This document shows, piece after piece, positions 37,321-54,367 of a stretch of 64,000 nucleotides of DNA. Source of the stretch: Eubacteriales bacterium (lineage in GTDB: Bacteria > Bacillota > Clostridia > Oscillospirales > CAG-382); assembly GCA_045538555.1 (NCBI GenBank), contig JAZSRP010000049.1, positions 65,476 through 129,475 of the forward strand. Reading direction: 5' to 3'. The notes beneath the pieces were generated by a model that searched no databases, had not been told where the DNA came from, and worked only from the letters and a program-made list of their open reading frames with translations. The number at the start of each line of letters is the position of its first letter. Position 1 is the stretch's first letter. Both the position numbers and the translations under genes were made by a program.

Positions 37321-37798
37321 TTATTACGATCTCGCTTTTTAAATCATATACACCCGAAAAATAACTTTGTATGGATTTAGTGCTAATAATATTGTAATCG
37401 ATAGAATCGCAAATAGCTTCTTTCCATGGTGTTTGTTTTTTAGTAGCAATTCCAAGCATTTGCCTATCATATATACCGTATTCCAATATGAAATTTTTAA
37501 AATAATCTCTAATCAGCGAAGGTATTGTGAAAACAAAATCATATGGCTTTGTTATAGGATCGTATTCCCAATCATTAAAGATAAACTCTAATTCTTTTAT
37601 ATATGGTCCACAAGGATATGCATATATATCCTCTTCAAAAATCTTTTCGCCATATTTTGCCAAATAACATCCTTGCGCCAAATATAGCAACTTATTCACT
37701 TTGTAAAAGTCCATTAAGAATTTTTCATCAGACATAGACTCCTTAAATTCTATTCCGTAAGAAATAGCCAATTTAGCTATATCGGCGGCTTTGCACAT
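37313..37798 (-). CDS. Panacea (DUF4065, SocA/GepA-like) domain protein, antitoxin-like
   Basis: 161 aa with AAGGAG upstream. NKLLYLAQGCYLAKYGEKIFEEDIYAYPCGPYIKEL matches my recollection of the DUF4065 core (KLxYyAqg...g.pLf.e.feAw..GPv...vY). Confidence 0.65.
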   Translation of the reverse strand: MCKAADIAKLAISYGIEFKESMSDEKFLMDFYKVNKLLYLAQGCYLAKYGEKIFEEDIYAYPCGPYIKELEFIFNDWEYDPITKPYDFVFTIPSLIRDYFKNFILEYGIYDRQMLGIATKKQTPWKEAICDSIDYNIISTKSIQSYFSGVYDLKSEIVING

Positions 37799-38305: not shown

Positions 38306-38932
38306 ATGAAGAGTATTCGAAATGAAGCTAAACCAAAGATAATTGAATTTATAGATGCCTATTATAACGATTATTTTACTGTTCCTACTGTACGTGAGAT
38401 TGCGGCAGGAACAGGTATATCTGTTTCTACAGTTCATCGTTGCTTGAATGTGATGAAAGAAAACGGTGAGCTTGAATATAGCGGACGCCGTTCTATTTCG
38501 ACTCCGCGTACTGCTATGGAAGGTAGCTATAATGCAATGCCTGTTCTCGGTTATGTTGCTTGTGGACCGGGTCAGGAGGAAGAAGAACAGCTTCTTGAAT
38601 ATATCCGTATGCCCGAAACTATTGTCGGTAATGATGAATGCTTCGCTTTAATTGCAAAAGGCGAGTCTATGGTTGACATTGGAATCTATCCCGGCGATTA
38701 CGTATTTGTCCGTAAACAAAACACCGCAAGCGTCGGCGACGTTGTTGTCGCGCTTCTTGATGGCAAGAATAATTTAAAGGTTCTTGATTACGATAGCAAT
38801 ACAAAACAATACGTTCTCAAATCCTGTAACGCAGATAAAGAAACCTATGAGGATAAAATTGTTGAAGGTGAGCTTCAAATTCAAGGTGTTGCGGTTTCTG
38901 TATCCCATAAGCTCGGGAAAGTGAAGATTTAA
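38306..38932 (+). CDS. LexA-like repressor (winged HTH plus S24 autopeptidase)
   Basis: N-terminal HTH VREIAAGTGISVSTVHRCL. The cleavage-site region is VLGYVACGPG. Ser is in KGESM and Lys in NNLKVL. Confidence 0.85.
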   Translation: MKSIRNEAKPKIIEFIDAYYNDYFTVPTVREIAAGTGISVSTVHRCLNVMKENGELEYSGRRSISTPRTAMEGSYNAMPVLGYVACGPGQEEEEQLLEYIRMPETIVGNDECFALIAKGESMVDIGIYPGDYVFVRKQNTASVGDVVVALLDGKNNLKVLDYDSNTKQYVLKSCNADKETYEDKIVEGELQIQGVAVSVSHKLGKVKI

Positions 38933-38933
38933 T

Positions 38934-41102
38934 ATGGATAACTTACTTAACGGACTAAACGAATCACAAATAGAAGCTGTTACAACTACCGACGGATATA
39001 TTCGCGTTATTGCAGGCGCAGGAACAGGGAAGACGCGTGCTCTTACTCATAGATATGCCTACCTCGTAAACGAGCTTGGTATATCACCTTCGAATATACT
39101 TTGCATTACCTTTACAAATAAAGCCGCAAACGAAATGAAAAAGCGTATAAAGCGCATGCTAGGCGACGAGTTCGATACTTCGTTTGTCGCAACGCTTCAC
39201 GCTTTCTGCACGAGAATATTGCGCGAGGAAATATATAAGCTCTTTTATCCCGATAATTTCATTGTATTGGATAATGTCGATCAGAAGAAGATCCTTGAAG
39301 AAGTCTATGACGAAATGTGTATTCGTATGGATACCGCAAGTTTCAAGTTTATGATCGATCAGATACGCTATTATAAAAATCTTATAACCTATGTAGAATA
39401 TCTGTCAAACCCTAATTTCGATTATTCAACACTTGTAGCGCAAAATAAGACGGAGGAGATAATCTTTCGTTACATAAATAAGCAACGCAAGTATTTCGGA
39501 CTTGATTTCTTCGACCTTATCAATTTTGTAATATACCTTTTCAGAACATATCCCGATGTACTCGAAAAATGGCAGAAAAAGCTCTGCTACATTATGGTTG
39601 ATGAATTCCAAGACATCACCGCAAAGGAATTCAAACTTATTCGCAGACTCTCAGAATTCAACCGTAATTTGTTTGTGGTTGGCGACCCCGACCAGAACAT
39701 ATACGAATGGCGCGGCGCAAATATGAGTGTTATCGTGGATTTTGAGTCTTGGCTGAACAACGAATGCTTCGAGGATAACCTCAATCTCAAATCACGCGAT
39801 ATTGTTTTAAGCAAGAATTACCGTTCCACAAAGAGTATATTAAGCGTAGCCAATTCATTGATTGAGAAGAACCAAAATCGTGTAGAAAAGGCATTAAGCG
39901 GTTCTTTCGAAGACGGCGAAAAGGTTAAATATCTCCACGCAAAGAACGATAAGGATGAAATCAAATATATTTGCGACGAGATCGCCAACCACGTAAAGAA
40001 TGGCGGTAAATACAGCGATATTGCCGTGCTATACCGTTCTAACTACGTTTCACGCTTTGTTGAGCAGGGCTTTCTTTCAAGAAACATACCTTATGTCGTT
40101 TACGGCGGTGTCGGTTTTTATGAACGAGCAGAAATTAAGGATGTATTGTCTTATATGCGCCTTCTGGAGCATACTGACGATGATTTGTCCTTTAAGCGAA
40201 TTATAAATGTGCCAAGGCGTAAAATCGGTAAGATAAAATTAAAGGTATTATCAGAATATGCCGAGCAAAACGGAACGTCTTTGTATGATGCGTTAAAAGC
40301 GTTATGTGAAACCGATACATTCAAATCCTGCAAGGCGAAGGAGTTTGTCGCTCAAATAGAATTACTTCGTCAACAAGCAGACGAGTTTGCGGTTTCTGAA
40401 CTTCTTCAAGCGATCCTTAATAAAACGGGTTATGAACTGTATATCCGTGAAAGCGGGGATATAGAACGCTTGGATAACGTTTCCGAGCTTATGCGTAGCA
40501 TCGTTACACAGGAAAACGAATTCGGCGAGCCCTTAACGCTTTCGACCTTTTTGCAGAATATAACGCTTCTGCGCGACAGCGATGTGGAGGATAAGAGTGA
40601 TTGCGTTAAGATTATGACAATACATACCGCAAAAGGTCTTGAATTCGACACGGTATTTCTTGTCGGACTTACGGAGGGTATTTTTCCTTCTGCAAGAAGT
40701 CTCGAAGAACGCAAGAACGATGCTCTTGAGGAAGAACGTCGCCTTTGCTTTGTTGCAATAACAAGAGCAAGAAAACGTCTGTACCTCACCGAAAGCGAGG
40801 GATTTGGTGTAAAGGGCTTTTCAAAAGTTCCGTCACGCTTTGTATTTGATATCGACAAATCATTGCTGGATAAAATCGGAACTGTTTCCGCAGACATTAT
40901 GGATGAATATGTCGTATTGAAGAAACGGTTTGATAAAACCGAACTTGAAGTATATAAGGTCGGTGACCAAATACGCCATAAGGTGTTCGGTGAAGGCATA
41001 GTCGAGGAAGTGGACGAGGAAACAAGAACCTATTATATCCGCTTTGTCAACGGCAGAAAACCGATCAACTTTAACTATAACGGCTTAAGCCATGTTTTTT
41101 AA
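38934..41102 (+). CDS. UvrD/PcrA/Rep family ATP-dependent DNA helicase
   Basis: Motifs AGAGTGKT, TFTNKAANEM, VDEFQD, NYRS and TIHTAKGLEF, with a C-terminal Tudor-like tail (GDQIRHKVFGEGIV). Confidence 0.9.
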   Translation: MDNLLNGLNESQIEAVTTTDGYIRVIAGAGTGKTRALTHRYAYLVNELGISPSNILCITFTNKAANEMKKRIKRMLGDEFDTSFVATLHAFCTRILREEIYKLFYPDNFIVLDNVDQKKILEEVYDEMCIRMDTASFKFMIDQIRYYKNLITYVEYLSNPNFDYSTLVAQNKTEEIIFRYINKQRKYFGLDFFDLINFVIYLFRTYPDVLEKWQKKLCYIMVDEFQDITAKEFKLIRRLSEFNRNLFVVGDPDQNIYEWRGANMSVIVDFESWLNNECFEDNLNLKSRDIVLSKNYRSTKSILSVANSLIEKNQNRVEKALSGSFEDGEKVKYLHAKNDKDEIKYICDEIANHVKNGGKYSDIAVLYRSNYVSRFVEQGFLSRNIPYVVYGGVGFYERAEIKDVLSYMRLLEHTDDDLSFKRIINVPRRKIGKIKLKVLSEYAEQNGTSLYDALKALCETDTFKSCKAKEFVAQIELLRQQADEFAVSELLQAILNKTGYELYIRESGDIERLDNVSELMRSIVTQENEFGEPLTLSTFLQNITLLRDSDVEDKSDCVKIMTIHTAKGLEFDTVFLVGLTEGIFPSARSLEERKNDALEEERRLCFVAITRARKRLYLTESEGFGVKGFSKVPSRFVFDIDKSLLDKIGTVSADIMDEYVVLKKRFDKTELEVYKVGDQIRHKVFGEGIVEEVDEETRTYYIRFVNGRKPINFNYNGLSHVF

Positions 41103-41117
41103 TAAGGAGAATTAAAA

Positions 41118-41621
41118 ATGGCAGAGATAATAAAAGTTTTCAAAGAGAATATCCCCAATATGCGCTTTATCGGAAAGAAGTATGGCGAATTCGGTCATTG
41201 GGGTGAATTTTGGGTAAATGATTGGTTTAGTTTGCTTGAAAAATCAATGGGCGGTACAGATGCAATACTCAATATTTGGGAAAACGGTGGCGGTTATGTA
41301 GGGCTCGAGCATTGGACTCCTAATGCACCGTTTGAATATTGGCTCGGCATGTTTGCGCCTATTGATACAGAGGTTCCCGATGGGTTTGAATACATAGATT
41401 TTACCGATCTTGCTCTTGGTACTTGCTGGATATACGGATGTGAAGCAGAGGTTCACGATGCTTCTGCTTGTCAACCAGCATTGATACAAAACGGTATGAC
41501 CATTTGGAAAGATGCTAACGGCGGTACTTGGTCGTTCGAAAACTGCCTCTGCCCAAGATATACTACACCCGACGAAAACGGAAAAATCATTCTTGATTAC
41601 TGTTATTTTGTGGAGAAATAA
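41118..41621 (+). CDS. GyrI-like / effector-binding-domain-like small protein (tentative)
   Basis: 167 aa. MRFIGKKY...WGEFWVNDWFSLLE resembles the C-terminal domain of the XRE regulator at 47259..47933. The fold assignment comes from motif memory only. Confidence 0.4.
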   Translation: MAEIIKVFKENIPNMRFIGKKYGEFGHWGEFWVNDWFSLLEKSMGGTDAILNIWENGGGYVGLEHWTPNAPFEYWLGMFAPIDTEVPDGFEYIDFTDLALGTCWIYGCEAEVHDASACQPALIQNGMTIWKDANGGTWSFENCLCPRYTTPDENGKIILDYCYFVEK

Positions 41622-41623
41622 TT

Positions 41624-42574
41624 ATGGAAAACATTATTAACTGGTTACTCGAAGAAAAAGAACCTTCTATTAGATACAGAACTCTTACCGAGATTTTGGA
41701 CAAACCCGAAACCGATCCCGAAGTTATTGAAGCGAAAGAAGCGGTGCTTCAATCAAAGAATGTTTGCCGTCTGTTTGACCGCTTGGATGACAGAGGATTG
41801 TTTCCTCATATTCAAAAGTTTTACGGCAATTTTACTACTTTCAGTTATCTCTATGCTCTTGCAGAACTTGGCTTGAAAAAGGGTGATCCTCATATTAACG
41901 AGATAGTTGATTGGATATTGATTCCCGGCGAGGACAAGCATGAGCATTTTATGCAGAAAGAGTTTCAAAATGAACATGCATATCTGCTTGACGAAAGCAA
42001 TCTCGGCAGTTGCCGCCAGACCGATTTCCTCGGTACATTGTTAAGACTTGGTTTTGGCGATGATGAGAGAGTAAAGAAGTTGATAGATGCGTTTATCGAA
42101 AAGAACAGATTTGACGGAGGTTATCTCTGTAAATGGAAAAAGAGCCGACATAAAGGTCAAACACCCAAAAGCTGTGTAGGTACTACTGTTAATGCGTTAA
42201 GAGTATTTTCCTATCTTCCCGAAGAATACAGGAACACCGATGCATATAAAAACACACTTGAATATTTTGTCAGCAGAAATATGATTCACAGCAAAATCAA
42301 TCCCGATGAGATCATCTGCTCTACAAATGCTTTCTACAACGGTTGCGGAATGTCTCACGCTTTTGTTCTTGCCGATGCAATGAGCCGTTTAGGACTTGCC
42401 AACATACCCGAAATGAACGAGGTATGGGAGATTATTGAAAGTAAAAAAGATGCCGAAGGCAAAGTAGTGTTAGAAGCTACCGATACAAAGAAAACACTTA
42501 TTATGGACGGCGTAGGCAAGCCTAATAAATATCTTACTCTTAATTTGCTTTTGAGTTATAAACATAGAGGATAG
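41624..42574 (+). CDS. hypothetical protein (possible alpha/alpha-toroid fold)
   Basis: 316 aa. Its N-terminus INWLLEEKEPSIRYRTLTEIL is similar to the N-terminus of 44792..45838. Confidence 0.6.
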   Translation: MENIINWLLEEKEPSIRYRTLTEILDKPETDPEVIEAKEAVLQSKNVCRLFDRLDDRGLFPHIQKFYGNFTTFSYLYALAELGLKKGDPHINEIVDWILIPGEDKHEHFMQKEFQNEHAYLLDESNLGSCRQTDFLGTLLRLGFGDDERVKKLIDAFIEKNRFDGGYLCKWKKSRHKGQTPKSCVGTTVNALRVFSYLPEEYRNTDAYKNTLEYFVSRNMIHSKINPDEIICSTNAFYNGCGMSHAFVLADAMSRLGLANIPEMNEVWEIIESKKDAEGKVVLEATDTKKTLIMDGVGKPNKYLTLNLLLSYKHRG

Positions 42575-42578
42575 TCGT

Positions 42579-42908
42579 ATGAACACAAATATCATAGGTT
42601 GTTGTGGTCACGACTGTTCGAGGTGTATTACATATCTTGCAACAATTAAAAATGATGATGCTTTACGAAAACAGTCGCAGCAGTTTTATAAAACTATGTT
42701 TGGCATGAATATTCCGATTTGTGAAGTCAACTGTCTCGGATGTCGTTCGGATAAGGTGTTTATACTTTGTAAGAGCTGTCCGTTTACAAAATGTGCGTCG
42801 GAACGGAAAATAGACGAGTGCTCTGAGTGTGTAGAATATCCTTGTAAAGCCCTTACGGAATATCAAGAAAAATATGTAAACAAGTGCAATCAGATTAAGT
42901 GTGATTAG
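42579..42908 (+). CDS. DUF3795-like Cys-rich (putative metal-binding) protein
   Basis: Cysteine pattern CCGHDCSRC...CLGC...CKSCPFTKC...CSECVEYPC. Confidence 0.65.
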   Translation: MNTNIIGCCGHDCSRCITYLATIKNDDALRKQSQQFYKTMFGMNIPICEVNCLGCRSDKVFILCKSCPFTKCASERKIDECSECVEYPCKALTEYQEKYVNKCNQIKCD

Positions 42909-42918
42909 GAGAAAAGTT

Positions 42919-43560
42919 ATGAGTACATATATTTTAACAAGTATGTTTAAAAACGAATTAGATGATAAATTTGCCAAACGACTTCGAGAAATAATAACAA
43001 GTAGAAACAGTTTTGTTTTTATAGCTTCTGACTTTGAAACAAATCACGAGAAGAACGACAAGTATTGCAATCATTGGCGTGATATGCTTTGTGACATTGG
43101 AATTGAATTTAAAAGTATCTTTGTGGTTGATGGGAGAATAACTCCCGACGAGGCCAAAAAAATCATTGAAAAAGCTGACTTTATTTGGCTCTCAGGTGGT
43201 GATACGCCAAAACAATTTGGATATATTAAACAATATGGTCTGGATACAGTTTTGAAAGAGTATAGTGGTATTTTATTTGGAATGAGTGCAGGAAGCATAA
43301 ATCTCTCCACTATGGCAGTTTGTTCTTTAGCAAGTGGTCACTATGTTCAAGAAATATATAACGGATTGGGTTGTGTTAATATTTCAATAGAACCTCACTT
43401 CTCACTTGATAAAACCGACGAGATATTGCAATTATCTGAAAAGTACAAACTTTATGGAGTGCCTGACGATAGTGCTATTATACTTCATAACAACGAAGTG
43501 GAGTTTTATGGGGATATTTTTATAGTCGAAAAAAGAATAATTAACAAAGTAACTATTTAA
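42919..43560 (+). CDS. peptidase S51 (dipeptidase E-like) family protein
   Basis: Trimmed to MSTYILTS with AGGAG upstream. FIWLSGGDT...FGMSAGSINLS matches the S51 nucleophile-elbow region. Confidence 0.7.
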   Translation: MSTYILTSMFKNELDDKFAKRLREIITSRNSFVFIASDFETNHEKNDKYCNHWRDMLCDIGIEFKSIFVVDGRITPDEAKKIIEKADFIWLSGGDTPKQFGYIKQYGLDTVLKEYSGILFGMSAGSINLSTMAVCSLASGHYVQEIYNGLGCVNISIEPHFSLDKTDEILQLSEKYKLYGVPDDSAIILHNNEVEFYGDIFIVEKRIINKVTI

Positions 43561-43573
43561 AGAGGAAACAATT

Positions 43574-43945
43574 ATGATAAAACGCCTACCTACCCATTGC
43601 GGTGATGAAACCTGTCCGTCTTGTGTTGTTGCGGGAGATTATATCTTCCTTGCCCATCACGCGGGTGGTTTTGAAAAGAGCGATATTGCTTACCAAACAA
43701 GAGTTGCTTTTGAAGCAATCAAAAACACACTCGCATCCGTCGGCGCAACCCTTGACGATATGGTGCAACTTAATTATTACATCAAAAATACCGAAGACTT
43801 CCGCACAGGACGGGATGTATTTACTGAATATTTCCCAAACGGCGCACCTGCAAGAATGACCGTTGTAACCCAATTCCTTGACGATAACTGTCTTTGCCAA
43901 ATAGACGGTATTGCTTATATAAGAAACGAGGAAAATAATGATTGA
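43574..43945 (+). CDS. RidA/YjgF family protein
   Basis: 123 aa. AYQTRVAFEAIKNTLASVGATLDDMVQLNYYI...ARMTVV is typical of the family. Confidence 0.75.
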   Translation: MIKRLPTHCGDETCPSCVVAGDYIFLAHHAGGFEKSDIAYQTRVAFEAIKNTLASVGATLDDMVQLNYYIKNTEDFRTGRDVFTEYFPNGAPARMTVVTQFLDDNCLCQIDGIAYIRNEENND

Positions 43946-44729
43946 AGCATATATCAACATACAGAACAGGCTCGGTGAAGAAGTCTCGAAGTCTTGGGAA
44001 AAACTTGTTGGCTTCGTCCGTGCATATTACGTTATGGAAGAACTGTGGGATGGAAAGGAAATATTAAAATTTCGCAAAAGCGGCAAAACGCTCGTTTCGT
44101 TAAGCGTGCAGGAAAATCGTTTCAACGCACTTGTTATCTTTGGAAAAGCGGAACGAGAGAAATTTGATGCGGTCAGAGATAACTTTTCGGATTATATACT
44201 TAATTACTATGACAACAGCCGTACATATCACGACGGAAAGTGGATGTTTATTGACGTTGACATCAACGCCAACATCGACGAGATTATTGAACTCATTAAG
44301 ATAAAAAAGAAACCCAACCGTAAGGTTGAGAACTTAAAAGATGCTGAAATAGGTTGTTGCGGTAACCGATGCGACCAATGTCTTTTACGAGCTACTAACG
44401 GCGGTAAAGAAAACCGAGTTCTGTTTACCGACGAGAATTACAAAATATACTTCTCTCCCGATGAACAAAAAGAAGACTATTCAGGCGTTAACTGCGCCGG
44501 TTGTTATCAAGGCTGTAAAACAAGAGATTGTGCAAAGGGAAAAGGATATGACGTTTGCGTGCAATGCGAGAATTATCCTTGCGAAACGGTTTTAGGCGCT
44601 TTTACTCATCCCGGAAGATGCAATGTAGGGCTCACACCCGAACAGCTTGATCTTCTCGTTATTCCGTATTGCGGTAAAGAAAGATTTGACCGTTGTAGAG
44701 ATCAGCTTTGTAAGAAGGATATGAAATAA
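43938..44729 (+). CDS. DUF3788-like N-domain fused to a DUF3795-like Cys-rich domain
   Basis: Overlaps the stop of the upstream gene. The C-terminal cysteine pattern is CCGNRCDQC...CAGC..GC..RDC...C.QC.NYPC. Confidence 0.6.
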   Translation: MIEAYINIQNRLGEEVSKSWEKLVGFVRAYYVMEELWDGKEILKFRKSGKTLVSLSVQENRFNALVIFGKAEREKFDAVRDNFSDYILNYYDNSRTYHDGKWMFIDVDINANIDEIIELIKIKKKPNRKVENLKDAEIGCCGNRCDQCLLRATNGGKENRVLFTDENYKIYFSPDEQKEDYSGVNCAGCYQGCKTRDCAKGKGYDVCVQCENYPCETVLGAFTHPGRCNVGLTPEQLDLLVIPYCGKERFDRCRDQLCKKDMK

Positions 44730-44791
44730 TAAAACGAAGTTAACGCACAAGGCGTCGATACGAAAGCGATAAAGGATCTGAGGTAAATACG

Positions 44792-45838
44792 ATGAAATTT
44801 CAAAAACATATAGATTTTCTTCTTGACAACGCTTGTACGAGCATTAAGTTTCTCGTTCATCGAGATTTTTTGCATACACCTTTGACAGAACCGTTTATGC
44901 AGAAGATGCGCGACGAGATATTGGAGCAAGAAAATATTAAAAAGCATCTTGCTTGCCAACATCCCGACGGATGGTTTGGTGACGAGCTTCACGGCGGCGA
45001 ATACGGAATGGAGCGCTCTATCGGTACACTTTTGAATGCAGGTGTTGAAAAAGAACATCCGGCAATCCAAAAAGGTATTCATGCGCTTATTACTCCCGAA
45101 ATATCATCGCAACACAAAAATTGGTTTCACGGCGGCGACGGATTGGACGCCGAAGGCAGAGGTGGTAATAATGCGATTATTGCATCTATTCTTTCTTGGG
45201 TAGGGTATGACGAAACTTATCCCATTTTGGCTGAACAGATCGTGCTCTCTTGGGAACACGTCGAAGCGGTTCGCAATTATAACGCCGTTGATGATTTCAC
45301 CAAGAAAGGCAAAAACGAGAGATACTATAAACCTAACGCTCGTTTCCCCGGCGCGAATCACATCGGATTGCTTAATGCAACACAAAGCTGGCGATCTAAT
45401 GAAAGAATGGAAATTGCAAAAGCTTCTATGAAACACGCCTATGAGTTGATGAAAGATTTTGATGAATACATCACCTTCAAAAAGCCGAAAGAATTAGGAG
45501 GCAGCTTCGTCGGTCCGTTTAACTATAATTGGCAGGCATTAAAGCCGACAGACGGAAAACAGTTATACGAAATTATCAATGATCCGTATAACTTCAGGTT
45601 TGCGTTTTGGCTTGGTTCTGTTTCGGGTGTTCCCGATTGGGTTCGTCAGTCGAACGAAACATATTTTGTCTTGGCTGACTTTCTTGAAAAAGAGGATAAC
45701 GTCGATGTTATCCCCGATAGAGTGTTCAGCGCATTCCGTAGAGTATCGGGCAAAGAACCCAATTATAGAAAACGCTCTACTGCGAAGTGCGATTTGACAT
45801 ATGCATTGCTTCGTGCCGTTTGGAATATGGTGGATTAA
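44792..45838 (+). CDS. hypothetical protein (distant paralog of 41624..42574)
   Basis: 348-aa ORF with GAGG upstream. Shares an N-terminal motif with 41624..42574. Confidence 0.6.
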   Translation: MKFQKHIDFLLDNACTSIKFLVHRDFLHTPLTEPFMQKMRDEILEQENIKKHLACQHPDGWFGDELHGGEYGMERSIGTLLNAGVEKEHPAIQKGIHALITPEISSQHKNWFHGGDGLDAEGRGGNNAIIASILSWVGYDETYPILAEQIVLSWEHVEAVRNYNAVDDFTKKGKNERYYKPNARFPGANHIGLLNATQSWRSNERMEIAKASMKHAYELMKDFDEYITFKKPKELGGSFVGPFNYNWQALKPTDGKQLYEIINDPYNFRFAFWLGSVSGVPDWVRQSNETYFVLADFLEKEDNVDVIPDRVFSAFRRVSGKEPNYRKRSTAKCDLTYALLRAVWNMVD

Positions 45839-45998
45839 AAGGAAAACGGGAAAATCCACGACTGAATTCCGTAGATCCCATCTATGATTTCTGTGTTTAT
45901 CTCAACATAGCATTTGAATGTGTATCAGAACTTATGAAAATGTATCAGAAATTTGTTTGAAAACTAAACGAATCTAAAATTAAGGAGAAAGAGTATAA

Positions 45999-47129
45999 AT
46001 GAGTAAACCAACAATATTTTTCAGCCACTCGTCAAAAGATAAGGATGCAATACTAGCAATTAAGAATAAGTTGGATAATTCAACTGGCGGAGCATTGGAT
46101 ATATTTATGTCAAGCGATGGACAAAGTATTCCTTTTGGTACAAATTGGATACACAAAATTGAGGAAGGTTTGCAAGCTGCGAAAATTATGTATGTATTTG
46201 TAACCGAAGTATCGGTTACTTCTGGATGGATATATTTTGAGGCTGGCTTTGCATATTCAAAAGGAATTCAAGTTGTTCCCGTCGGTATCGGCATCGATAT
46301 TGGAACTCTAAAGGCTCCTTTGAATTTGCTTCAAGGTTTTAATATCACATCTGAGGATAGTTTGAATAATTTTATTACTATTATAAACAGAACATTTGAT
46401 TATCACTTTAAAGAAGCGTTTGATAAAAATGATTATACTGAGATAATAAGTTTAACTTCGTTGAACACAAATAAGGCAGTTGGATTTGAAAAAATTGTTC
46501 GTCAAACAGAATGCTCAATTTACTCAGACCAAACATCTAATGGCGAGAAAAAAGAGTATGACTTAGAGTTATGTTTCAATAAGATAATTGACTACTTAGA
46601 CCGCAATTCTATCAGTTATTCTCGGGATAATAAATATCACGGAATCGAGTCTCGCGTTTGTATAATGGTATATGGAATAAAGATGGTTTACTACAAAGCC
46701 CAAAAGAAAAATCCAAATGTTCGATATTCGTCAGATGAGCCGGGGGAAATCAAGTTTCAAATATCTCCGTATAATTTTACCAAGTCGTTTGATTTACTCA
46801 AGGAATTGTTATTGCTAATGGAAGACAAACCCACCCACTATCTTAGAGTATATTTACAAGATGAGTATGAATATGTGAATTCGGATGAAAACGTAGCATC
46901 AATTATATCTAATGCAGATGGATTCGATTTTAACAAGTCGTATATCGGTGGATACATTTACAACGAGCTGGATTTGCAGTTTTATATTTTCGAGGAACAT
47001 CGCGACATACGAAATCGTCAAACCGATCATTTGATTTCAATAGTATACAAATGTGATACAGTTTGTGCTAACCATATTACTAACTTGCTACACAGACTTT
47101 GCGATATTGGTTTGATTTGTGAAAAGTAG
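45999..47129 (+). CDS. TIR-domain protein with an unassigned ~240-aa C-terminal region
   Basis: AAGGAG upstream. The N-terminus PTIFFSHSSKDKD...IMYVFVTEVSVTSGWIYFEAGFAY fits the bacterial TIR pattern (beta-A FxSxxxxD and a conserved Glu after a WxxxE-like motif). Confidence 0.7.
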   Translation: MSKPTIFFSHSSKDKDAILAIKNKLDNSTGGALDIFMSSDGQSIPFGTNWIHKIEEGLQAAKIMYVFVTEVSVTSGWIYFEAGFAYSKGIQVVPVGIGIDIGTLKAPLNLLQGFNITSEDSLNNFITIINRTFDYHFKEAFDKNDYTEIISLTSLNTNKAVGFEKIVRQTECSIYSDQTSNGEKKEYDLELCFNKIIDYLDRNSISYSRDNKYHGIESRVCIMVYGIKMVYYKAQKKNPNVRYSSDEPGEIKFQISPYNFTKSFDLLKELLLLMEDKPTHYLRVYLQDEYEYVNSDENVASIISNADGFDFNKSYIGGYIYNELDLQFYIFEEHRDIRNRQTDHLISIVYKCDTVCANHITNLLHRLCDIGLICEK

Positions 47130-47258
47130 ATTTGATACATTTTTAGTATCTATCAAAATATGATAAAAGTCCTTGGCTTTTGCTATACGCAACGAAATGT
47201 TGCTTGATTATTCGTGTTACTTTTGATAAACTGAATTCATCAAAAGAGGTGTTGCAAT

Positions 47259-47933
47259 ATGATAGGAGAGAACATAAAAGATTTTAGAGTAAAAAAGAAT
47301 ATAACTCAAGAAGAACTTGCAGAAAAATTGAATGTGACAAGGCAAGCAATCTCAAAATGGGAAAACAACAAAGGCGAGCCGGACTTGAATATGCTTTGCA
47401 ATATCGCAACTGTGTTGTCCGTGACCGTAGAAGAATTGCTTGATGGCGAATGTACTGTTCAAATGGAAGCCATATGCAAAGAAATACAACCTGCACTTCG
47501 CTTTATTGGGAAAAGATACAAGGGTAACGAAAGCATTCGCACCAAGTGGAATCTGTGGAAAGAAAATGGTTGGTTTACTGTTTTGGAAGGTTTGGATAAC
47601 CGATATGGAAACAATTATATCGGCGCAAAACGTATTGTTGATGGCATGTTGGAGTATTGGATAGGCATGATTTTCTTTCAAAATGCTGCAGTCCCTAATG
47701 GGTTTAACTATATTGATATTGATGCAGTAAATTTGGCTGTATTTCAGTTGCGCGGAAAAGCACATAAAATCACTTCCTTTGAAACACATAACCTTTGTCT
47801 CGATGAACTTGACAAAAACGGAATGATACGTTTTGAAGATCATTGGTGTTTTGAGTGTTATGATGATAAGTCTATTGATTACATTGGAACTGACAAATCA
47901 ATGACAATTGATTATAAAATATCCATATTGTAA
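47259..47933 (+). CDS. XRE-family HTH regulator fused to a GyrI-like/effector-binding-like domain
   Basis: The N-terminal ITQEELAEKLNVTRQAISKWENNKGEPDL is a classic XRE HTH. The C-terminal domain resembles 41118..41621. Confidence 0.8.
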   Translation: MIGENIKDFRVKKNITQEELAEKLNVTRQAISKWENNKGEPDLNMLCNIATVLSVTVEELLDGECTVQMEAICKEIQPALRFIGKRYKGNESIRTKWNLWKENGWFTVLEGLDNRYGNNYIGAKRIVDGMLEYWIGMIFFQNAAVPNGFNYIDIDAVNLAVFQLRGKAHKITSFETHNLCLDELDKNGMIRFEDHWCFECYDDKSIDYIGTDKSMTIDYKISIL

Positions 47934-47968
47934 ACAAACAGCCGAGGAATCACCTCGGCTGTTTGTTT
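47932..47968. terminator. bidirectional terminator, 16-bp perfect stem
   Basis: AAACAAACAGCCGAGG (47932-47947) pairs with CCTCGGCTGTTTGTTT (47953-47968). Confidence 0.9.
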
Positions 47969-48009
47969 ATATGCAGAATCTGAAGAAACTATTTTATAAC
48001 AGAAAAGAA

Positions 48010-48924
48010 CTAAATCGTATTTCTTAAAAACAACATATTTCGTATGGCAAAATAAGGACGCCACCATGCAGTTGCAATATGCTGCTCGGGATAATCCGTC
48101 CACCATTGCCAAGTGACAGGAAAACCTCCGTCTTCGGATTGATATTGTTGCAACAGTTCACGTTCTTTCAATAAAAGTTCTTTGTTGTCCTCGTAGAACA
48201 TGCTGTCCTTTGAGAGAATAAAGTCGGACGGTTTCGTATGATACTCGGCAAACCATAAGTCATAATTGGGATTGATACAATGCTTAACTTGTTTTCGAAG
48301 AAGCTCTGCGAACTTGCTCATGTCCAAAAACGAAACTTTGGGCACAATACAATCATCATACAAATTACAAAAACAGGTTGTAACATGCTGTTCATCAAAA
48401 GGAATACTTGCTTCCAAAAAGGCAAACGCTTCTTTTGCAATCGATACGCCCTTTTGATACAATTCCGATTTGGGATCGGCATACCGTATAATAAACCCTG
48501 CAAGACTTGCTGTCGGGTTATATTTGAACTCGCTGCCACCGTCGCCATATGTCCACCATGTTGCATGCGGATGATCGTTGTTGGTCGGAACAACATTCAG
48601 CCATTGCTGATGCACCTCGTCAAAATCTGCACTGCTTTCCAAATAGCGCAAAATTCCTTCAACAATCGGATGCGTTGCATCTTTCCAACCGATTTCTCTT
48701 AACACTTCGGTTGCAAACCATGTCGCAATCGGTGTTGAATTAGGATTCCAGCAATCCGGCTCCAAAGCATAACCAAACCCACCATCTTCGTTTTGATAGT
48801 AAGACAAGGCGTTCATTACAGTTTCTTTACTGCCGTTTTCAAAATGAAATTGCCACCTTGCAAGATCAAGAGGACGAGCGTAGCGATAAACAAAGCTTCT
48901 TGTTTTTTCAAATATACTCATCAT
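48010..48924 (-). CDS. hypothetical protein with prenyltransferase/terpene-cyclase-like QxxDGGF repeats
   Basis: 304 aa containing YQNEDGGFG and YQSEDGGFP motifs. ATGA coupling to the upstream gene. Confidence 0.6.
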   Translation of the reverse strand: MMSIFEKTRSFVYRYARPLDLARWQFHFENGSKETVMNALSYYQNEDGGFGYALEPDCWNPNSTPIATWFATEVLREIGWKDATHPIVEGILRYLESSADFDEVHQQWLNVVPTNNDHPHATWWTYGDGGSEFKYNPTASLAGFIIRYADPKSELYQKGVSIAKEAFAFLEASIPFDEQHVTTCFCNLYDDCIVPKVSFLDMSKFAELLRKQVKHCINPNYDLWFAEYHTKPSDFILSKDSMFYEDNKELLLKERELLQQYQSEDGGFPVTWQWWTDYPEQHIATAWWRPYFAIRNMLFLRNTI

Positions 48925-50003
48925 AGCAACGCTCCCATAAATCTCACGGGCATTTTTCCGTAGTTAACGGATTGAATGGCATCGACAATTTCTGCCTTGC
49001 GTGCTTCGGCATTTGGCAAATCGCAAACGATATCGTTGAGGTCGTACGGACCGTTGCGGAAGTGACCAACAGATGCGCCGTGAAACTCGCCGTCAATAAG
49101 GAGATATTGCAACGGCTCGTGGTCATATTCAAGACCATCAGTAAGGCGTTTTGCATAGTCTTTTAAAATGTGTTCGTGGGATTTATAAAGAAAATCGTTC
49201 CTGTGGAGTGCGTAAACAAAGTGCATTTCCTTGGTTTCATAAGTTTCGAGCAATTCGGCATCGGTTCTGAGCATGAATCCACTGTCGGATGCTACTAAAA
49301 CGCCTTCGGCCACTAAATCGCTCACCGCAAACTTAATTTCCTTTTCGGGCAGTTTATAGAATGATTTTGCCATTGCGGTATCGAACCAAACAAGTCGGTA
49401 TGCAAATTTCTGTAATACGATTTTTAGAGCTTCGTGTCTTGTGTATTTATCTTGGTTTACATTTGGGAACATTTCACCGAAACGATACCAACCTCTATCC
49501 CATTCACCGTCGTACTGGTCCTCATAAATCAAGAACGCTTCTTGCAAACGGTGAAGAATAGGTGTTATCTGCTTTACAAGCAATCCCGTTTCTTCTTTTA
49601 TCTGCTGAATGGTGTACGGACCCGACGTTTCGATAAGTTCAAGAATGGTTGATTGGTCTGCGGTAGGTTTTGTAAGCGGTTTTCGATATAGACCGATAAA
49701 CAATTCCATATCCTCGGGGACGATCCAACCAAGATTACCACCCGAAAAACGACCTTTAATAAGCTCACGCTTTAACTGTCTTTCACGATTAAACTCAATA
49801 TCGTTGAAATCAGTTCTGAAGGAAAGTGTAGGCGGTTCGCCAAAACCGTTCCAATAAACATTCTGCCCCGGTTGCATATCTCGATAAAGGTTTATGTATT
49901 CGCTTTCATCAGCTTTATTAACAAAGCATTGACGCTCCATACGGAGAGAAATGATTTTTTCGTTCATAGTTGCACCATTATTATCAATCGTCATTTTCAT
50001 CAA
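48921..50003 (-). CDS. winged-helix protein, possibly YcaQ/AlkZ (DUF1006) family
   Basis: About 350 aa. The N-terminus is IISLRMERQCF and an internal wHTH-like segment reads ILELIETSGPYTIQQIKEETGL. The start is uncertain (50003 or 49967). The family call is from memory only. Confidence 0.45.
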   Translation of the reverse strand: MMKMTIDNNGATMNEKIISLRMERQCFVNKADESEYINLYRDMQPGQNVYWNGFGEPPTLSFRTDFNDIEFNRERQLKRELIKGRFSGGNLGWIVPEDMELFIGLYRKPLTKPTADQSTILELIETSGPYTIQQIKEETGLLVKQITPILHRLQEAFLIYEDQYDGEWDRGWYRFGEMFPNVNQDKYTRHEALKIVLQKFAYRLVWFDTAMAKSFYKLPEKEIKFAVSDLVAEGVLVASDSGFMLRTDAELLETYETKEMHFVYALHRNDFLYKSHEHILKDYAKRLTDGLEYDHEPLQYLLIDGEFHGASVGHFRNGPYDLNDIVCDLPNAEARKAEIVDAIQSVNYGKMPVRFMGALL

Positions 50004-50166
50004 AATATATACATTGTTTTAAGCACTCACCACAGTTCATACAATTATTATCGACAACGGGAGATGGAAATCCGTTATCATTCTTCACAAACACAATATG
50101 CTCACAGTTACAAGCGCGACAACCAGTGCATAAACCCGATTCGACAACTTTTGTAATGTTATTCAT
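49984..50166 (-). CDS. small 2x[4Fe-4S]-like ferredoxin-motif protein (may be a gene remnant)
   Basis: 60 aa with CTGCRACNC and CMNCGECLKQC. Overlaps the downstream ORF by 20 nt. Confidence 0.45.
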   Translation of the reverse strand: MNNITKVVESGLCTGCRACNCEHIVFVKNDNGFPSPVVDNNCMNCGECLKQCIYFDENDD

Positions 50167-50167
50167 T

Positions 50168-50446
50168 TTATTTTCCTTCTTCTAACAGATCTCTAAGGTT
50201 TTGAATTTCTATACCGTTACCTTCGGGATTTTCACTTTTACCGATGTTTATAAGCTGTTCGCAGGGAAAATTCTTGCATTGTCCGCAATGGTTAAGTCCT
50301 TGGTTAACTGCACAATCGTGAGTATCGCAAGTACCGCCCCAAACACATTTACCTTGAGGTGCAACGATTCTACAACCCTCGCATTTTTTGTCGATCATAA
50401 AAGGACATTTAGCGCAGTCAATTCCGCATACAGATATATTTTTCAT
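50168..50446 (-). CDS. DUF3795-like Cys-rich protein
   Basis: Cysteine pattern CGIDCAKC...CEGC...C...C..HCGQCKNFPC. Confidence 0.65.
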   Translation of the reverse strand: MKNISVCGIDCAKCPFMIDKKCEGCRIVAPQGKCVWGGTCDTHDCAVNQGLNHCGQCKNFPCEQLINIGKSENPEGNGIEIQNLRDLLEEGK

Positions 50447-50467
50447 TTATGTACTCCTTAAACTATT

Positions 50468-51034
50468 TTAGTCTGTATAAAGTTTTCCATAGATAAGGCA
50501 ATCATGCAATCCATCATTCAAAAGAAAGCAATGGCGCAGATGACCTTCTTTTATGAAGCCGTTCTTTTCGAGAACTCGTTGAGATGCGATATTGTTCGGC
50601 TCGACGGATGTGAAGATGCGTTCAAGCTTTAGCTGTTCGAATCCAAACTTTACAACAGCTTCTGTGCAAGCCGTCATAATACCTTTATTCCAATACTTTC
50701 GGTCAAGGAAATAGCCGATATTTGCGGCAGTATTATTGTTTTGAAAATCGCTTAATAGGATTCTGCCCAAAACCTCGTCGGTATTGCGATCTGCAATAGT
50801 CCAGTTATACTCGCGGTATTTCTCAAAAGCGTTGATTTGGTTTTGAATAATTTTCTTAACTTGTTCAAGGTTTGCAGGCGGTTTACCGTATCCTAAATAA
50901 TACTTAAGGGCATCAGCATCACTGTATATTTCAAAATATTTTTCGCAATCCTGCTCTGGCTTAACTTGTCGCAGGATAATGTTTTCATTAACTGCAATCG
51001 CCTGAAATTCAGCAAATATTTCTTTTGATGTCAT
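50468..51034 (-). CDS. GNAT family N-acetyltransferase (RimJ/RimL-like)
   Basis: Trimmed to MTSKEIFAEF with AAAGGA upstream. YWNKGIMTACTEAVVKFGF is a motif A-like region. Confidence 0.8.
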   Translation of the reverse strand: MTSKEIFAEFQAIAVNENIILRQVKPEQDCEKYFEIYSDADALKYYLGYGKPPANLEQVKKIIQNQINAFEKYREYNWTIADRNTDEVLGRILLSDFQNNNTAANIGYFLDRKYWNKGIMTACTEAVVKFGFEQLKLERIFTSVEPNNIASQRVLEKNGFIKEGHLRHCFLLNDGLHDCLIYGKLYTD

Positions 51035-51059
51035 ATTTATATCCTTTCGAAACTGATTA

Positions 51060-51821
51060 TTATATATTTTGTTTTTGTGCGATGATACAATACCAATCAA
51101 ACGAATCAACATCAAAATCAGCAAATGCAGGCATACACGTTATTCTAATATTTCCATATCCTATATTCTTGAGTTTGTTTACAATATCATTTCGCTTGAT
51201 TGGGAAATAGTGTTCTTCAAATATTTCATTTGATGTAATAACACCATTATCCTCGAACGAATATAAAATATTGAAGTCCATAGAACCATCCATATTGTAA
51301 TCCCATAATTGAACGCAGTTTATTTTTGTTCCGTTTATGAAAGTTGGGTTGTATGGCCAAAAACGTTTTCGTTCAACTAATATCTTGTCCCAATTCCTTG
51401 TATCAATATAGATATATCCGTTTTCATTCACAAGTGAATCCATTTGCTCGATTACATCGAATACTTCTGAATTAGTAACATATGGTAGGGAATTTCCCGT
51501 GGATGCAACACAGTCAAATTTGCGATTAAAATGACATCTTATTTTTCTGAAATCGCATTGTGTGAGTTCAATGTAAATATTCTTGATGTTTGCTTTATTT
51601 GCGCATCTTTCAAGCATAACATCACTTAAGTCTGAACCATACAATTCTATTCCTAATTCCGCCAACGGGAGTGTGAGTGAGCCTGTTCCTATACTAACAT
51701 CAAGAAATGATTTGATGTTAGTGCCTTCCAAAATTTTCTGCCAATGCAATATTGTTTGTTGATATTTTCTCTCGGTATCAAAAGCGTCGTATAAATCAGC
51801 TCTATCATATAAACTTGGCAT
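51060..51821 (-). CDS. class I SAM-dependent methyltransferase (small-molecule type)
   Basis: Motif I LDVSIGTGSLTLPLAE and the acidic loop YGSDLS. Confidence 0.8.
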   Translation of the reverse strand: MPSLYDRADLYDAFDTERKYQQTILHWQKILEGTNIKSFLDVSIGTGSLTLPLAELGIELYGSDLSDVMLERCANKANIKNIYIELTQCDFRKIRCHFNRKFDCVASTGNSLPYVTNSEVFDVIEQMDSLVNENGYIYIDTRNWDKILVERKRFWPYNPTFINGTKINCVQLWDYNMDGSMDFNILYSFEDNGVITSNEIFEEHYFPIKRNDIVNKLKNIGYGNIRITCMPAFADFDVDSFDWYCIIAQKQNI

Positions 51822-52190: not shown

Positions 52191-52645
52191 TATGATTTAC
52201 ACGATTTTACAGTATTTTCTATCTAAAGTCTTAGAAGATGATTTTGCCCTCCGAAATGATAAAATTTCGGAATGATTTTGAGATGATTCTCCTGTTTTCT
52301 TATGCCCCATTTTCCCCCCTTATTTATGATAAGAAAAATAATAGATGTTTTCGTTATGATAAGAGGTAAATCCCCCCTGTTTCCGAAATGAGGGAGCAGG
52401 TGCAGTCATCCCGAAACGCACCCCAATCATTCCGAAATGACGGTTCCGCAATCATATTGAAATGATGCGGATGAATCCGCAAGAAAATCAAAAATAAAAC
52501 TTTATGCTTGTCATTTTAAAATGATAGGCATTTTTCATTTAGGAGATTATTTCATAATTTCCCATTAAGATGCTATTGTTTTTTACTTGCCAAATTATAT
52601 GTTGTTATTCAATATAACTCCAACAATACGAAAGGAGTGATATTG

Positions 52646-52864
52646 ATGCCAAAGAAAGATATGACTTTGACTGATGCATATAAGCTGATGTTCGTAGATT
52701 ATCCCGATGTGGTAGCGGTGCCGCAATTGTGTGAAATGCTCGGTGGAATCGGTCGTAAAGAAGCTTACAAGTTATTGCACAGTGGAAAGATTGAATATTT
52801 GAATGATGGAAAGGGATTTAAGATTCCTAAAATATGCGTTTTGGCGTACCTACTGAATGAATGA
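52646..52864 (+). CDS. xis: excisionase-type HTH DNA-binding protein
   Basis: ATG at 52646 is 8 nt after GGAG. 72 aa. VPQLCEMLGGIGRKEAYKLLHSGKIEYLNDGKGFKIPK is an HTH_17/Xis-like pattern. The gene lies directly upstream of int. Confidence 0.75.
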   Translation: MPKKDMTLTDAYKLMFVDYPDVVAVPQLCEMLGGIGRKEAYKLLHSGKIEYLNDGKGFKIPKICVLAYLLNE

Positions 52865-52970: not shown

Positions 52971-54146
52971 ATGCTGAAAGGCACTGTTCAAAACAAAAAT
53001 GGTATGTTTTACACCGTAATAAGCTACGAAGATGAAAACGGTAAACGAAAACAGAAGTGGGAAAAGACCGGATTAGCCGTCAAGGGAAACAAGCGTAGAG
53101 CTGAGGAGCTTTTAAGACAACGCTTGGAAGAATTTGAACTGTTGCAAAAACAGCCACCAGATGAAGAAACTAAAAAAGACATAGCGTTTTCAAAGTTTAT
53201 GTCAAACTGGTTGGCGATGGTTAAATGCTCGATTGAGATTACAACCTTCGGTAGTTATCAATATTTCATCGAGAAGCGCATTAATCCTTACTTCGACAAA
53301 TTGGGTATGACGCTACAAAAAATCAAAACCAGCGACATTCAGGAGTATTACAACACGATGCTCGGCAAAGGAACAAAGTGGAATTCGGTTGTTAAACATC
53401 ATGCGGTCATTCACAAGGCGCTTGATTACGCAGTGAAAATGGAGTATATACCTTTTAATCCTGCGGCTCGTATTGAAACGCCTAAGAAACAGAAGTATAT
53501 CGGTGATTACTATAATCAAGATGAACTTAACCAACTGTTTTCAGTCATTAAAGGCGATACGGCAGAGGTTGCGATAGTTCTTGCTGCGTATTACGGTTTA
53601 AGACGGAGTGAAGTTCTTGGCATCAAATGGAGCGCAATCGATTTTAAGGAAAAGACTATCTGTATTAAACATACCGTCTGCAAAACACAGATCAATGGAG
53701 AAGACGTGATAATTGCGAAAGATAGGACAAAGAATAAGTCGAGCATAAGAACTTTGCCGTTGATTCCTGCAATAGAAAAGCTTTTATTAGAAATCAAGAA
53801 AAAGCAGGAAGCAAACCGTAAAAAATGTAAAAAGGCTTATTGTAAAGAGTATGTTGACTATGTCTGTGTTGACAGTATGGGTGTGAGGTTAAAACCCGAT
53901 TATTTAACACAACACTTGCAACACATTTTAAAGAAATATAAATTGAAACATATTCGATTTCACGATCTCAGACATAGCTGTGCGAGCTTGTTGTTGGCAA
54001 ATGGTATATCGCTGAAAGAAATTCAAGATTGGTTAGGTCATTCGGATTTCAGTACAACGGCAAATATTTATGGACATTTGGATTACGGTGCAAAATTGAA
54101 ATCAGCAGGGAAGATTGCAGAAATGCTTACCATTGATAATGATTAA
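52971..54146 (+). CDS. int: tyrosine-type site-specific integrase
   Basis: 391 aa. Catalytic Arg in GLRRSEVLGIKW, HDLRHSCASLL (HxxR), and LGHSDFSTTANIYGHL (His and Tyr). The N-terminal arm-binding-like domain is intact. Confidence 0.93.
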   Translation: MLKGTVQNKNGMFYTVISYEDENGKRKQKWEKTGLAVKGNKRRAEELLRQRLEEFELLQKQPPDEETKKDIAFSKFMSNWLAMVKCSIEITTFGSYQYFIEKRINPYFDKLGMTLQKIKTSDIQEYYNTMLGKGTKWNSVVKHHAVIHKALDYAVKMEYIPFNPAARIETPKKQKYIGDYYNQDELNQLFSVIKGDTAEVAIVLAAYYGLRRSEVLGIKWSAIDFKEKTICIKHTVCKTQINGEDVIIAKDRTKNKSSIRTLPLIPAIEKLLLEIKKKQEANRKKCKKAYCKEYVDYVCVDSMGVRLKPDYLTQHLQHILKKYKLKHIRFHDLRHSCASLLLANGISLKEIQDWLGHSDFSTTANIYGHLDYGAKLKSAGKIAEMLTIDND

Positions 54147-54280: not shown

Positions 54281-54334
54281 TGGTGCGGGTGACAGGACTT
54301 GAACCTGCACAACATTGCTGCCACTAGAACCTGA
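54281..54334. repeat. attR-like direct repeat (3' 54 nt of the functional tRNA-Leu)
   Basis: Matches 34925-34978 at 53 of 54 positions. Confidence 0.9.
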
Positions 54335-54367
54335 ATCTAGCGCGTCTGCCAATTCCGCCACACCCGC
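54281..54367 (-). tRNA. tRNA-Leu (anticodon CAG), type II with long variable arm, CCA encoded
   Basis: Reverse complement is GCGGGTG-T-GGCGGAATTGGCAGACGCGC-TAGATTCAGGTTCTA-GTGGCAGCAATGTTGTGC-AGGTTCAAGTCCTGT-CACCCGC-ACCA. This is 87 nt and folds as a cloverleaf with anticodon loop TTCAGGT. Confidence 0.92.

Follow-up and report, generated by a model that had tools for sequence, protein, structure and literature searches.

A stand-alone TIR protein with a fast-evolving C-terminal module as a putative single-gene anti-phage sensor-effector

The idea of a single-protein TIR or TIR-like NAD+ glycohydrolase (NADase) with a private sensor is less novel than it was, as SpbK, Swarozyc, Evangelion and Vulcan have already been established experimentally. 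SpbK, made up of a four-helix sensor and a TIR domain, clusters on the SPbeta portal protein YonE and causes abortive infection (PMC12847820; PMC8880864). Swarozyc (KpSwz) consists of DUF4062 and AUX and assembles on the Bas14 portal (10.64898/2026.05.01.722283), Evangelion (Eva01) is likewise composed of DUF4062 and AUX (10.64898/2026.06.25.731849), and Vulcan combines NIR with HEAT repeats (10.64898/2026.09.04.749371). A TIR-SAVED protein can act alone as well (10.1101/2025.06.19.660554). Here we describe a gene at 45999..47129 (+ strand) of a 64,000-nt stretch of contig JAZSRP010000049.1 from an Eubacteriales bacterium (positions 65,476 to 129,475; in the following the window, to which positions refer unless another locus is named). 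It encodes a 376-aa protein with an N-terminal TIR domain and a C-terminal module of ~240 aa, hereafter the tail. From sequence comparisons we consider this protein, with a probability of roughly 60%, a single-protein, cytosolic sensor-effector of anti-phage abortive infection.

The TIR domain and the C-terminal tail

The open reading frame (ORF) starts with ATG and ends with a stop codon at 47127-47129. Because homologues were found in 797 clusters and the ratio of non-synonymous to synonymous divergence (dN/dS) is well below 1 in both halves of the protein, ORF 45999..47129 is evidently a real gene and not a chance reading frame.

The TIR domain spans residues 1-137 (45999..46409, + strand) and is predicted from its Pfam assignment and fold matches to be an NAD+ glycohydrolase effector. 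Pfam TIR_2 (PF13676) matched residues 6-115 with E=6.4e-10 and 40 bits, compared with a gathering score of 28. Precomputed PF13676 assignments were present in all full-length homologues, some of which additionally carried a precomputed PF08937 (ThsB_TIR). The top PADLOC matches were ThsB profiles, which covered residues 3-88 only (E=4.7e-7 to 4e-3), and the best match among PDB sequences was the TIR of Cat1 (E=1e-4), restricted to the TIR part. A candidate catalytic residue, Glu81 (codon GAG, 46239-46241, + strand), lies in the motif SGWIYFEAG and was aligned with the W-x-x-x-E glutamate of Cat1 (SDWCWDE) and of the ThsB-like PDB chain 8btn_B (SLWMPWE). It did not vary in 44 homologues and 45 cross-phylum loci, and it lies outside the patterns with which these loci were searched. 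The original prediction, made from the letters of the window, had read the N-terminus as TIR-like with a candidate catalytic glutamate, and both claims were borne out. As to how partner residues of Glu81 contribute to catalysis, we rely on the literature on TIR NADases.

An AlphaFold model computed with 44 sequences reached a predicted local distance difference test score (pLDDT) of 82.6, and in this model residues 1-137 alternate between strands and helices. Foldseek recovered TIR domains of bacteria and eukaryotes, namely ThsB, a B. cereus TIR, the SpbK filament, MyD88, TcpB and RPS4 with a probability of 1.0 and target-normalised template modelling (TM) scores of 0.53-0.69, and structures of DNPH1, MilB and nucleoside 2-deoxyribosyltransferase scored similarly (E 6e-4 to 4e-3). 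As modelled, residues 1-137 have the flavodoxin-like alpha/beta fold of a TIR domain. At the position of the BB loop of TIR domains, residues 38-50 form the loop SSDGQSIPFGTNW (46110..46148, + strand), which presumably is a functional and mobile loop of the BB type, because its sequence is near-invariant and the model is of low confidence there (pLDDT <50 for residues 41-50). Part of this motif was, however, contained in the pattern of the locus search. The TIR half may have NAD+ glycohydrolase or cyclase activity.

The tail (residues 138-376; 46410..47126, + strand) is a predicted trigger-sensing or regulatory module in which a linker helix leads into an acidic, compact domain of the alpha/beta type. 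No family for this region was found in Pfam, NCBIfam or PADLOC. When 24 tails were scanned singly in Pfam at E<=1, only scattered and inconsistent noise was obtained, and a tail profile matched none of the PDB sequences. Modelled alone, the tail reached a pLDDT of 86.7 and a predicted TM score (pTM) of 0.80 and showed a mixed beta/alpha domain behind the linker helix. Foldseek with this model gave no match in the PDB at E<=1e-3, and a search of a viral structure library gave nothing meaningful. No transmembrane segment was detected in the tail, where hydrophobic runs are no longer than 5 residues, and its net charge is about -9 on average (range -15 to -3). Acidity and the lack of a transmembrane segment argue against direct binding of nucleic acids or a role at the membrane. 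Hence the C-terminus, which the original prediction had described as matchless and free of transmembrane segments, kept both properties. An origin in a housekeeping family, which would have spoken against that prediction, found no backing, as profile, PDB and fold searches gave no family match whatever.

Several identities of the tail were considered and rejected. SAVED, CARF, STING, SLOG, Macro and SIR2 gave no profile, PDB-sequence or fold signal. An internal duplication was suggested by the secondary structure, which looks like two units of beta-beta-alpha-beta4-alpha, but hhalign of one half against the other gave a probability of 0.2%.

Homologues, selection and gene neighbourhoods

In a search of 5.8 billion clusters at E<=1e-3, the 797 homologous clusters were obtained at 90% identity, and about 100 at 50% identity. 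The best 120 of the 797 were all ~375 aa in length, aligned over their full length, bore no name and were assigned TIR_2 only. For the comparison of loci one genome per species was kept, resulting in 58 loci, and the patterns FFSHSSKD and FMSSDGQSI were used in the locus search. The loci belong to Clostridia, Bacillota, Melainabacteria, Gammaproteobacteria, Bacteroidota, Planctomycetota, Anaerolineae, Verrucomicrobia, the candidate phyla radiation (CPR) and others, and the protein length is 340-390 aa in all 58. More distant relatives of the TIR half were seen on mobile elements. Prophages of S. agalactiae (phiGBSVK-C_GBSInt4, L067 4001-4753; Javan47) encode a 250-aa protein with 27% identity over residues 1-198, annotated as hypothetical; its gene forms a moron, with the late transcriptional activator on one side and the gene for the small terminase on the other. 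On a 4.6-kb Klebsiella plasmid, a TIR protein of 250 aa is encoded next to the rep gene (L068).

The two halves of the protein differ in their rate of change. Pairwise identity among 44 homologues averaged 81% in residues 1-137 and did not fall below 65%; in residues 138-376 the average was 39% and the minimum 21%. In a codon analysis restricted to pairs of 62-83% identity, dN/dS was 0.02-0.05 for the TIR half versus 0.08-0.37 for the tail, and by this measure both are under purifying selection, which is strong in the TIR half. Synonymous divergence was comparable in both halves while dN of the tail was 3-8 times higher, indicating that the contrast between head and tail comes from selection and not from recombination. 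In the tail only G226 is invariant across phyla, and a catalytic constellation is therefore not recognised in it.

Nearly always the tail follows the TIR domain described here, and heads of another type are rare. A tail profile searched against 1.84 billion representative proteins retrieved 107 proteins at E<=1e-3, 68 with the same TIR head (the tail starting from ~residue 139) and 39 fragments. One protein of 401 aa (P0144) carries a DUF4062/NIR head (DUF4062 E=2e-24) before the same tail, and the island around its gene also carries a Schlafen-type helicase, NUDIX, GmrSD and a MamI restriction-modification (R-M) system. In a 499-aa protein (P0136; nine cluster members from several contigs) the tail follows an unassigned 274-aa head of weak PDC-S31 similarity, and the gene adjoins an XRE gene. 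An apparent transmembrane head (P0223) and a HATPase_c_3 head (P0187) were also seen, both in partial sequences that may be truncated or chimeric. Exchange of heads on a constant tail is a signature of sensor or regulatory modules in conflict systems. With the tail of P0144 as query no match was obtained, apparently owing to a word-index limit. Three metagenomic proteins (P0169, P0187 and P0218) share an identical stretch of ~95 aa of the C-terminal module and differ in their N-termini, which are a truncated TIR, HATPase_c_3 and a TIR with an internal deletion, respectively; they may have arisen by true recombination at a single hotspot or be chimeras of the assembly.

Gene neighbourhoods at 44 loci, taken as the four genes to either side of the homologue, were compared by all-against-all BLAST. 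A conserved partner was not found, as no neighbour family was present in more than 4 of the 44, and the few recurrent families were serine recombinases, integrases and a type III-like methyltransferase. The XRE gene at 47259..47933, which had been put forward for co-expression with the TIR gene, was dropped as a system component: it is not a conserved neighbour of homologues and nothing marks it as part of a system. At several loci the TIR gene lies 19-39 nt 3' of R-M genes, namely DpnI with methyltransferases (L001, L002), an Eco57I-type methyltransferase with a BsuBI/PstI endonuclease (L004), and a type I/IIG R-M system with an AAA_15/21 ATPase (L005). Elsewhere its direct neighbours are Fic and AbiA (reverse transcriptase plus HEPN; L006), Schlafen AlbA_2 and N6_N4 methyltransferases (L007, L008, L028), NgoPII (L030), HNH (L026), MazG (L047), ATPases of the OLD, Gabija and AriA types, resolvases and integrases.

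Three arrangements were noted in addition. In the Clostridia loci L007, L008 and L028 the stop codon of the TIR gene overlaps the start of a gene for an N6_N4 methyltransferase of 580-670 aa, behind which lies a large gene of the ResIII type; this would make the TIR gene the first of a type III-like R-M operon. Taken with the loci at which it lies 19-39 nt behind R-M genes, this suggests that the TIR gene is frequently co-transcribed with R-M systems. In the gammaproteobacteria Paraferrimonas and Marinomonas another, different TIR gene (L033 9462-9986 and L034 9093-9959) is located 12-39 nt directly before the family member, matching ThsB_TIR (E=4e-24) at one locus and TIR_2 (E=2e-6) at the other. 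Such tandems might represent a two-TIR system or merely stacked defences. Moreover, SLATT/DUF4231 genes were present within the upstream neighbour set.

Proposed mechanism and alternatives

We propose that the TIR protein is inactive in the uninfected cell. Upon infection, the acidic and variable residues 138-376 would recognise a cue supplied by the phage, most probably one of its proteins, and binding of this cue would gather the TIR domains into an assembly whose composite active sites are built around Glu81 and the invariant BB-type loop. The assembled TIR domains would then hydrolyse NAD+, and growth would stop or the cell would die ahead of phage progeny, resulting in abortive infection. 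The gene itself would move as a single cassette among defence islands and integrative elements. This one-protein model is the most economical because the TIR glutamate is intact, the fast-evolving tail has no conserved catalytic residues and no partner gene is seen. Because the tail is acidic and has no conserved pocket, the trigger would more probably be a protein than nucleic acid or a small-molecule ligand. We infer the NADase output, the role of oligomerisation in activation, the kind of trigger and the phenotype of phage defence. The suggestion of the original prediction that the gene is an uncharacterised single-gene TIR defence candidate is supported by the TIR assignment, the matchless tail, the missing partner and the defence and mobility genes in the neighbourhoods.

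Several points weigh against abortive infection by a single protein. The direct neighbours of the homologues are mostly defence or mobility genes, but this association is qualitative, and in the window itself the TIR gene directly adjoins the genes of a 348-aa protein and of an XRE/GyrI-like regulator, neither of which is a classical defence gene. The fold of the tail points to no particular trigger. The phage and plasmid collections searched contain almost no members of the family: apart from one truncated copy on a contig of a faecal phage, they yielded only TIR proteins that are shorter and distantly related. Residues F7, F8, S9, H10, D40, W50, W77, E81, G83, Q112 and G113 were invariant in 45 non-redundant loci, although the invariance within FFSHSSKD and FMSSDGQSI is partly circular, as these were the search patterns, and W77, E81 and Q112 are independent of them. 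Finally, the conservation of the TIR half is unusually high and atypical for simple NAD+-depleting effectors; it could reflect a more specific chemistry, in which a signal might be produced, or an interaction partner that is itself conserved.

A possible though doubtful extension starts from the exchange of heads. The tail would be a portable infection-sensor fold, so far undescribed, placed on at least three killing heads (TIR_2, DUF4062/NIR and PDC-S31-like, possibly also a transmembrane head), and the frozen TIR half (dN/dS ~0.03 across phyla) would point to specialised chemistry or assembly that differs from that of known TIR NADases and not to simple NAD+ hydrolysis.

It is unlikely that the TIR domain instead makes a nucleotide signal (an isomer of cyclic ADP-ribose (cADPR), histidine-ADP-ribose (His-ADPR) or similar) that is read by an unlinked effector, as in Thoeris. 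The W-x-x-x-E glutamate is shared with ThsB, which was found among the top PADLOC profiles (best E=4.7e-7) and among the fold matches, and PF08937 was assigned to some homologues. The low dN/dS of the TIR half would suit a precise product chemistry, and SpbK too makes N1-cADPR, for which the receptor is not known (PMC12847820). ThsB proteins lack the tail described here. However, among the island ORFs scanned (all but four small ones) no ThsA-like protein with SIR2, Macro or SLOG was found, which agrees with the original prediction that the island holds no ThsA-like partner. Beyond the window, no partner is kept within four genes on each side in the 44 loci, and neither SIR2 nor SLOG is among the top 25 neighbour Pfam families listed. 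A cassette that moves alone across phyla could also not count on an unlinked receptor in every host.

Similarly improbable is a TIR domain gated by a small molecule, in which the tail would bind a metabolite or a (modified) nucleotide that builds up as infection proceeds, such as products of genome degradation, and thereby switch on the NADase. The only fold matches of the tail with a probability of ~0.9, which were also its top Foldseek matches, are the tandem ACT regulatory domains of aspartate kinase, and several homologues adjoin DNA methyltransferases or the methyl-dependent DpnI. Precedents exist in Metis, in which MisA senses N6-methyl-dAMP (m6dAMP) (10.1101/2025.11.05.686725), and in the stand-alone TIR-SAVED protein, which senses c-di-AMP (10.1101/2025.06.19.660554). 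The ACT matches, however, are weak (E>=1.2e-3, the best at 1.2e-3; TM scores 0.2-0.28; root-mean-square deviation (rmsd) ~11 Å), and an ACT-like ligand-binding tail is retained here with low confidence. A ligand pocket should keep polar residues, of which the tail conserves nearly none across phyla, and 39% identity suits recognition of proteins in an arms race better than binding of a fixed ligand. SAVED, CARF and PUA signals were absent from the tail. Sensing of m6dAMP in the manner of Metis was rejected, as MisA consists of PUA and a metallophosphatase and is not a TIR protein (10.1101/2025.11.05.686725).

We regard a function outside immunity as very unlikely, be it that of a TIR-like nucleotide or nucleoside N-glycosidase of the DNPH1, MilB or deoxyribosyltransferase type, or that of a selfish toxin or addiction module. 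In Foldseek DNPH1, MilB and nucleoside 2-deoxyribosyltransferase are about equal to true TIR domains, and the genes of the window island are mostly of a detoxification type (GNAT, methyltransferase, RidA-like, GyrI-like, DUF3795). Sequence profiles, however, give TIR_2 and not a deoxyribosyltransferase family, no small antitoxin-like gene is conserved alongside, and three features are characteristic of conflict systems and not of metabolism: the patchy spread over phyla, a tail that evolves fast, and R-M, Abi and Schlafen genes directly next to the gene.

An orphan TIR-APAZ protein, with a divergent APAZ as tail and hence one half of a SPARTA-like short-Argonaute system, is hardly credible and was dismissed: SPARTA chains were the top Foldseek matches of the full-length model (8i87_C, E=2.7e-6, ~416 aligned columns; 8z8y_B, 8spo_M, 8k34_A) and size and order of TIR and tail are comparable, but these matches reached only TM scores of 0.24-0.30 at an rmsd of 17-23 Å and are carried by the TIR domain, because the tail alone retrieved no APAZ chain in the top 50, the tail profile matched no PDB sequence, and neither a recurring neighbour family of short-pAgo size nor, among the top 25 neighbour families listed, a recurring short Argonaute (MID-PIWI) was found.

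Genomic context and comparison with described systems

The TIR gene is preceded by the ribosome-binding site AAGGAGA (45982-45988, + strand), with the ATG 10 nt further downstream. The preceding ORF ends at 45838 and the XRE gene that follows begins at 47259, so that the gene has a 160-nt spacer before it (45839-45998) and one of 129 nt behind it (47130-47258). The upstream spacer holds two exact copies of TGTATCAGAA (45921-45930 and 45941-45950, + strand), 20 nt apart from start to start, which corresponds to two helical turns, and 49-78 nt before the start codon. These paired copies may represent an operator, that is, a putative binding site for a regulator. A consensus promoter scan revealed no convincing sigma-70 site in the 160-nt spacer, and promoter and terminator scans around the gene gave nothing exceeding the shuffled background. 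A weak terminator-like hairpin of low confidence (47189-47203, + strand; 6-bp stem with 3 GC pairs, poor T tract) lies between the TIR and XRE genes. With 33.8% the TIR gene has the lowest GC content among the island genes examined, its neighbours having 36-43% and the flanks ~47%, which suggests that it was acquired separately and more recently.

The island is delimited by a 54-nt direct repeat of the 3' half of tRNA-Leu(cag), which is 98% identical, is not expected by chance even once and encloses 19.4 kb of DNA of lower GC content. The left copy (34925-34978, + strand) forms the left boundary. The right copy (54281-54334) is the 3' half of the tRNA-Leu(cag) gene itself (54281-54367, - strand), the sole tRNA found in the window. 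A tyrosine integrase gene (52971-54146, + strand) adjoins the tRNA, and an HTH_17 excisionase-like gene (52637-52864) is present at the same end. The TIR gene is flanked upstream by the gene for the 348-aa protein, which has no family match (44792-45838), and downstream by the XRE gene (47259..47933; HTH_3 E=2.7e-17), whose product has a GyrI-like C-terminus. The setting given in the original prediction, a gene with its own ribosome-binding site and both spacers on a tRNA-integrated island beside an XRE regulator, was thus verified.

The remaining genes of the island were surveyed as well. A SocA/Panacea-domain protein (37313-37798, - strand; PF13274 E=2e-9) is encoded with an 8-nt overlap with a 421-aa ORF without a real family match (36055-37320, - strand). 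This pair, which looks like a Panacea-type toxin-antitoxin pair, coincides with the lowest-GC stretch of the island (36055-37798, 28-31%). A gap of 1 nt separates the gene for a LexA-like repressor (winged helix-turn-helix (HTH) plus Peptidase_S24; 38306-38932, + strand) from the next one, which encodes a UvrD-family helicase of 722 aa (38934-41102). This helicase was matched with very high scores by the PADLOC models RTasHel (E=1e-107) and GajB (E=1e-101). A GajA-like partner of the helicase was not seen, and the two genes may form an SOS-linked or a defence helicase module. The remainder of the island (41118-51821) contains genes for the handling of small molecules and shows internal paralogy: two GyrI/Cass2-like domains that are 30% identical (41118-41621 and the C-terminus of the XRE protein, 47259-47933), three Cys-rich proteins of the DUF3795 type (42579-42908, the C-terminus of 43938-44729, and 50168-50446) and three proteins of 300-350 aa without a family match (41624-42574, 44792-45838 and 48010-48924). 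Peptidase_S51, a RidA-like ORF, GNAT and a methyltransferase were also found in this region.

PADLOC-DB 2.0 contains no full-length model for the family, and a literature search found no description of the architecture of TIR plus tail, which by itself is no proof of novelty. Among the described proteins, TIR-SAVED of CBASS and Cat1 (TIR-CARF) of type III CRISPR likewise carry an N-terminal TIR NADase and a C-terminal regulatory domain of ~200-250 aa. In contrast to these, the tail has no SAVED or CARF match by profile or fold, and CD-NTase or CRISPR genes do not recur as neighbours.

SpbK of Bacillus subtilis ICEBs1 is, like the gene described here, a single gene on an integrative element; it encodes a TIR NADase with a small private sensor and needs no partner, as is predicted for the window protein, and its TIR filament (9phb) was among the Foldseek matches of the window protein. 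Unlike the latter, SpbK has the reversed order, with an N-terminal four-helix bundle and the TIR domain at the C-terminus, is 266 aa in length and has an unrelated sensor fold, and no sequence homology was detectable beyond the generic TIR core. Swarozyc and Evangelion are also single genes in defence islands or on mobile elements and begin with a TIR-like NADase core that contains a catalytic glutamate, followed by a fast-diverging, sensing AUX without recognisable domains. The head of the window protein, however, is TIR_2 and not DUF4062, and the ~150-aa AUX of KpSwz is of the HTH/winged-helix type (10.64898/2026.05.01.722283), whereas the tail described here is an acidic alpha/beta domain of ~215-240 aa. 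The closest link to Swarozyc is provided by P0144, whose DUF4062 head matches KpSwz (10wc_A) with E=4e-26 over residues 1-171 only.

If the proposed function is true, a compact one-gene anti-phage system has been missed by current catalogues (no full-length match in PADLOC 2023), although it is spread over gut Clostridia, Melainabacteria, Proteobacteria, Bacteroidota, Planctomycetota and others. The tail would then add a new sensor fold to the few known modules for phage recognition. The natural exchange of heads (TIR, DUF4062/NIR and other) provides a ready test of how sensor and NADase head are coupled, and a near-invariant enzyme half next to a fast-evolving tail is a clean system for mapping trigger specificity.

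Judged by its features, an NADase-type head, a private variable sensor, no obligatory partner and a location among defence or mobile genes, the protein would belong to the functional class of single-protein TIR-type abortive-infection sensors. It would act like SpbK, Swarozyc, Evangelion and Vulcan, yet it is a member of none of them, the AUX comparison being that with KpSwz. The family extends the theme set by these four systems and opens no new one: strategy and effector appear to be known ones, while the sensor module seems to be undescribed and to occur with other effectors as well.

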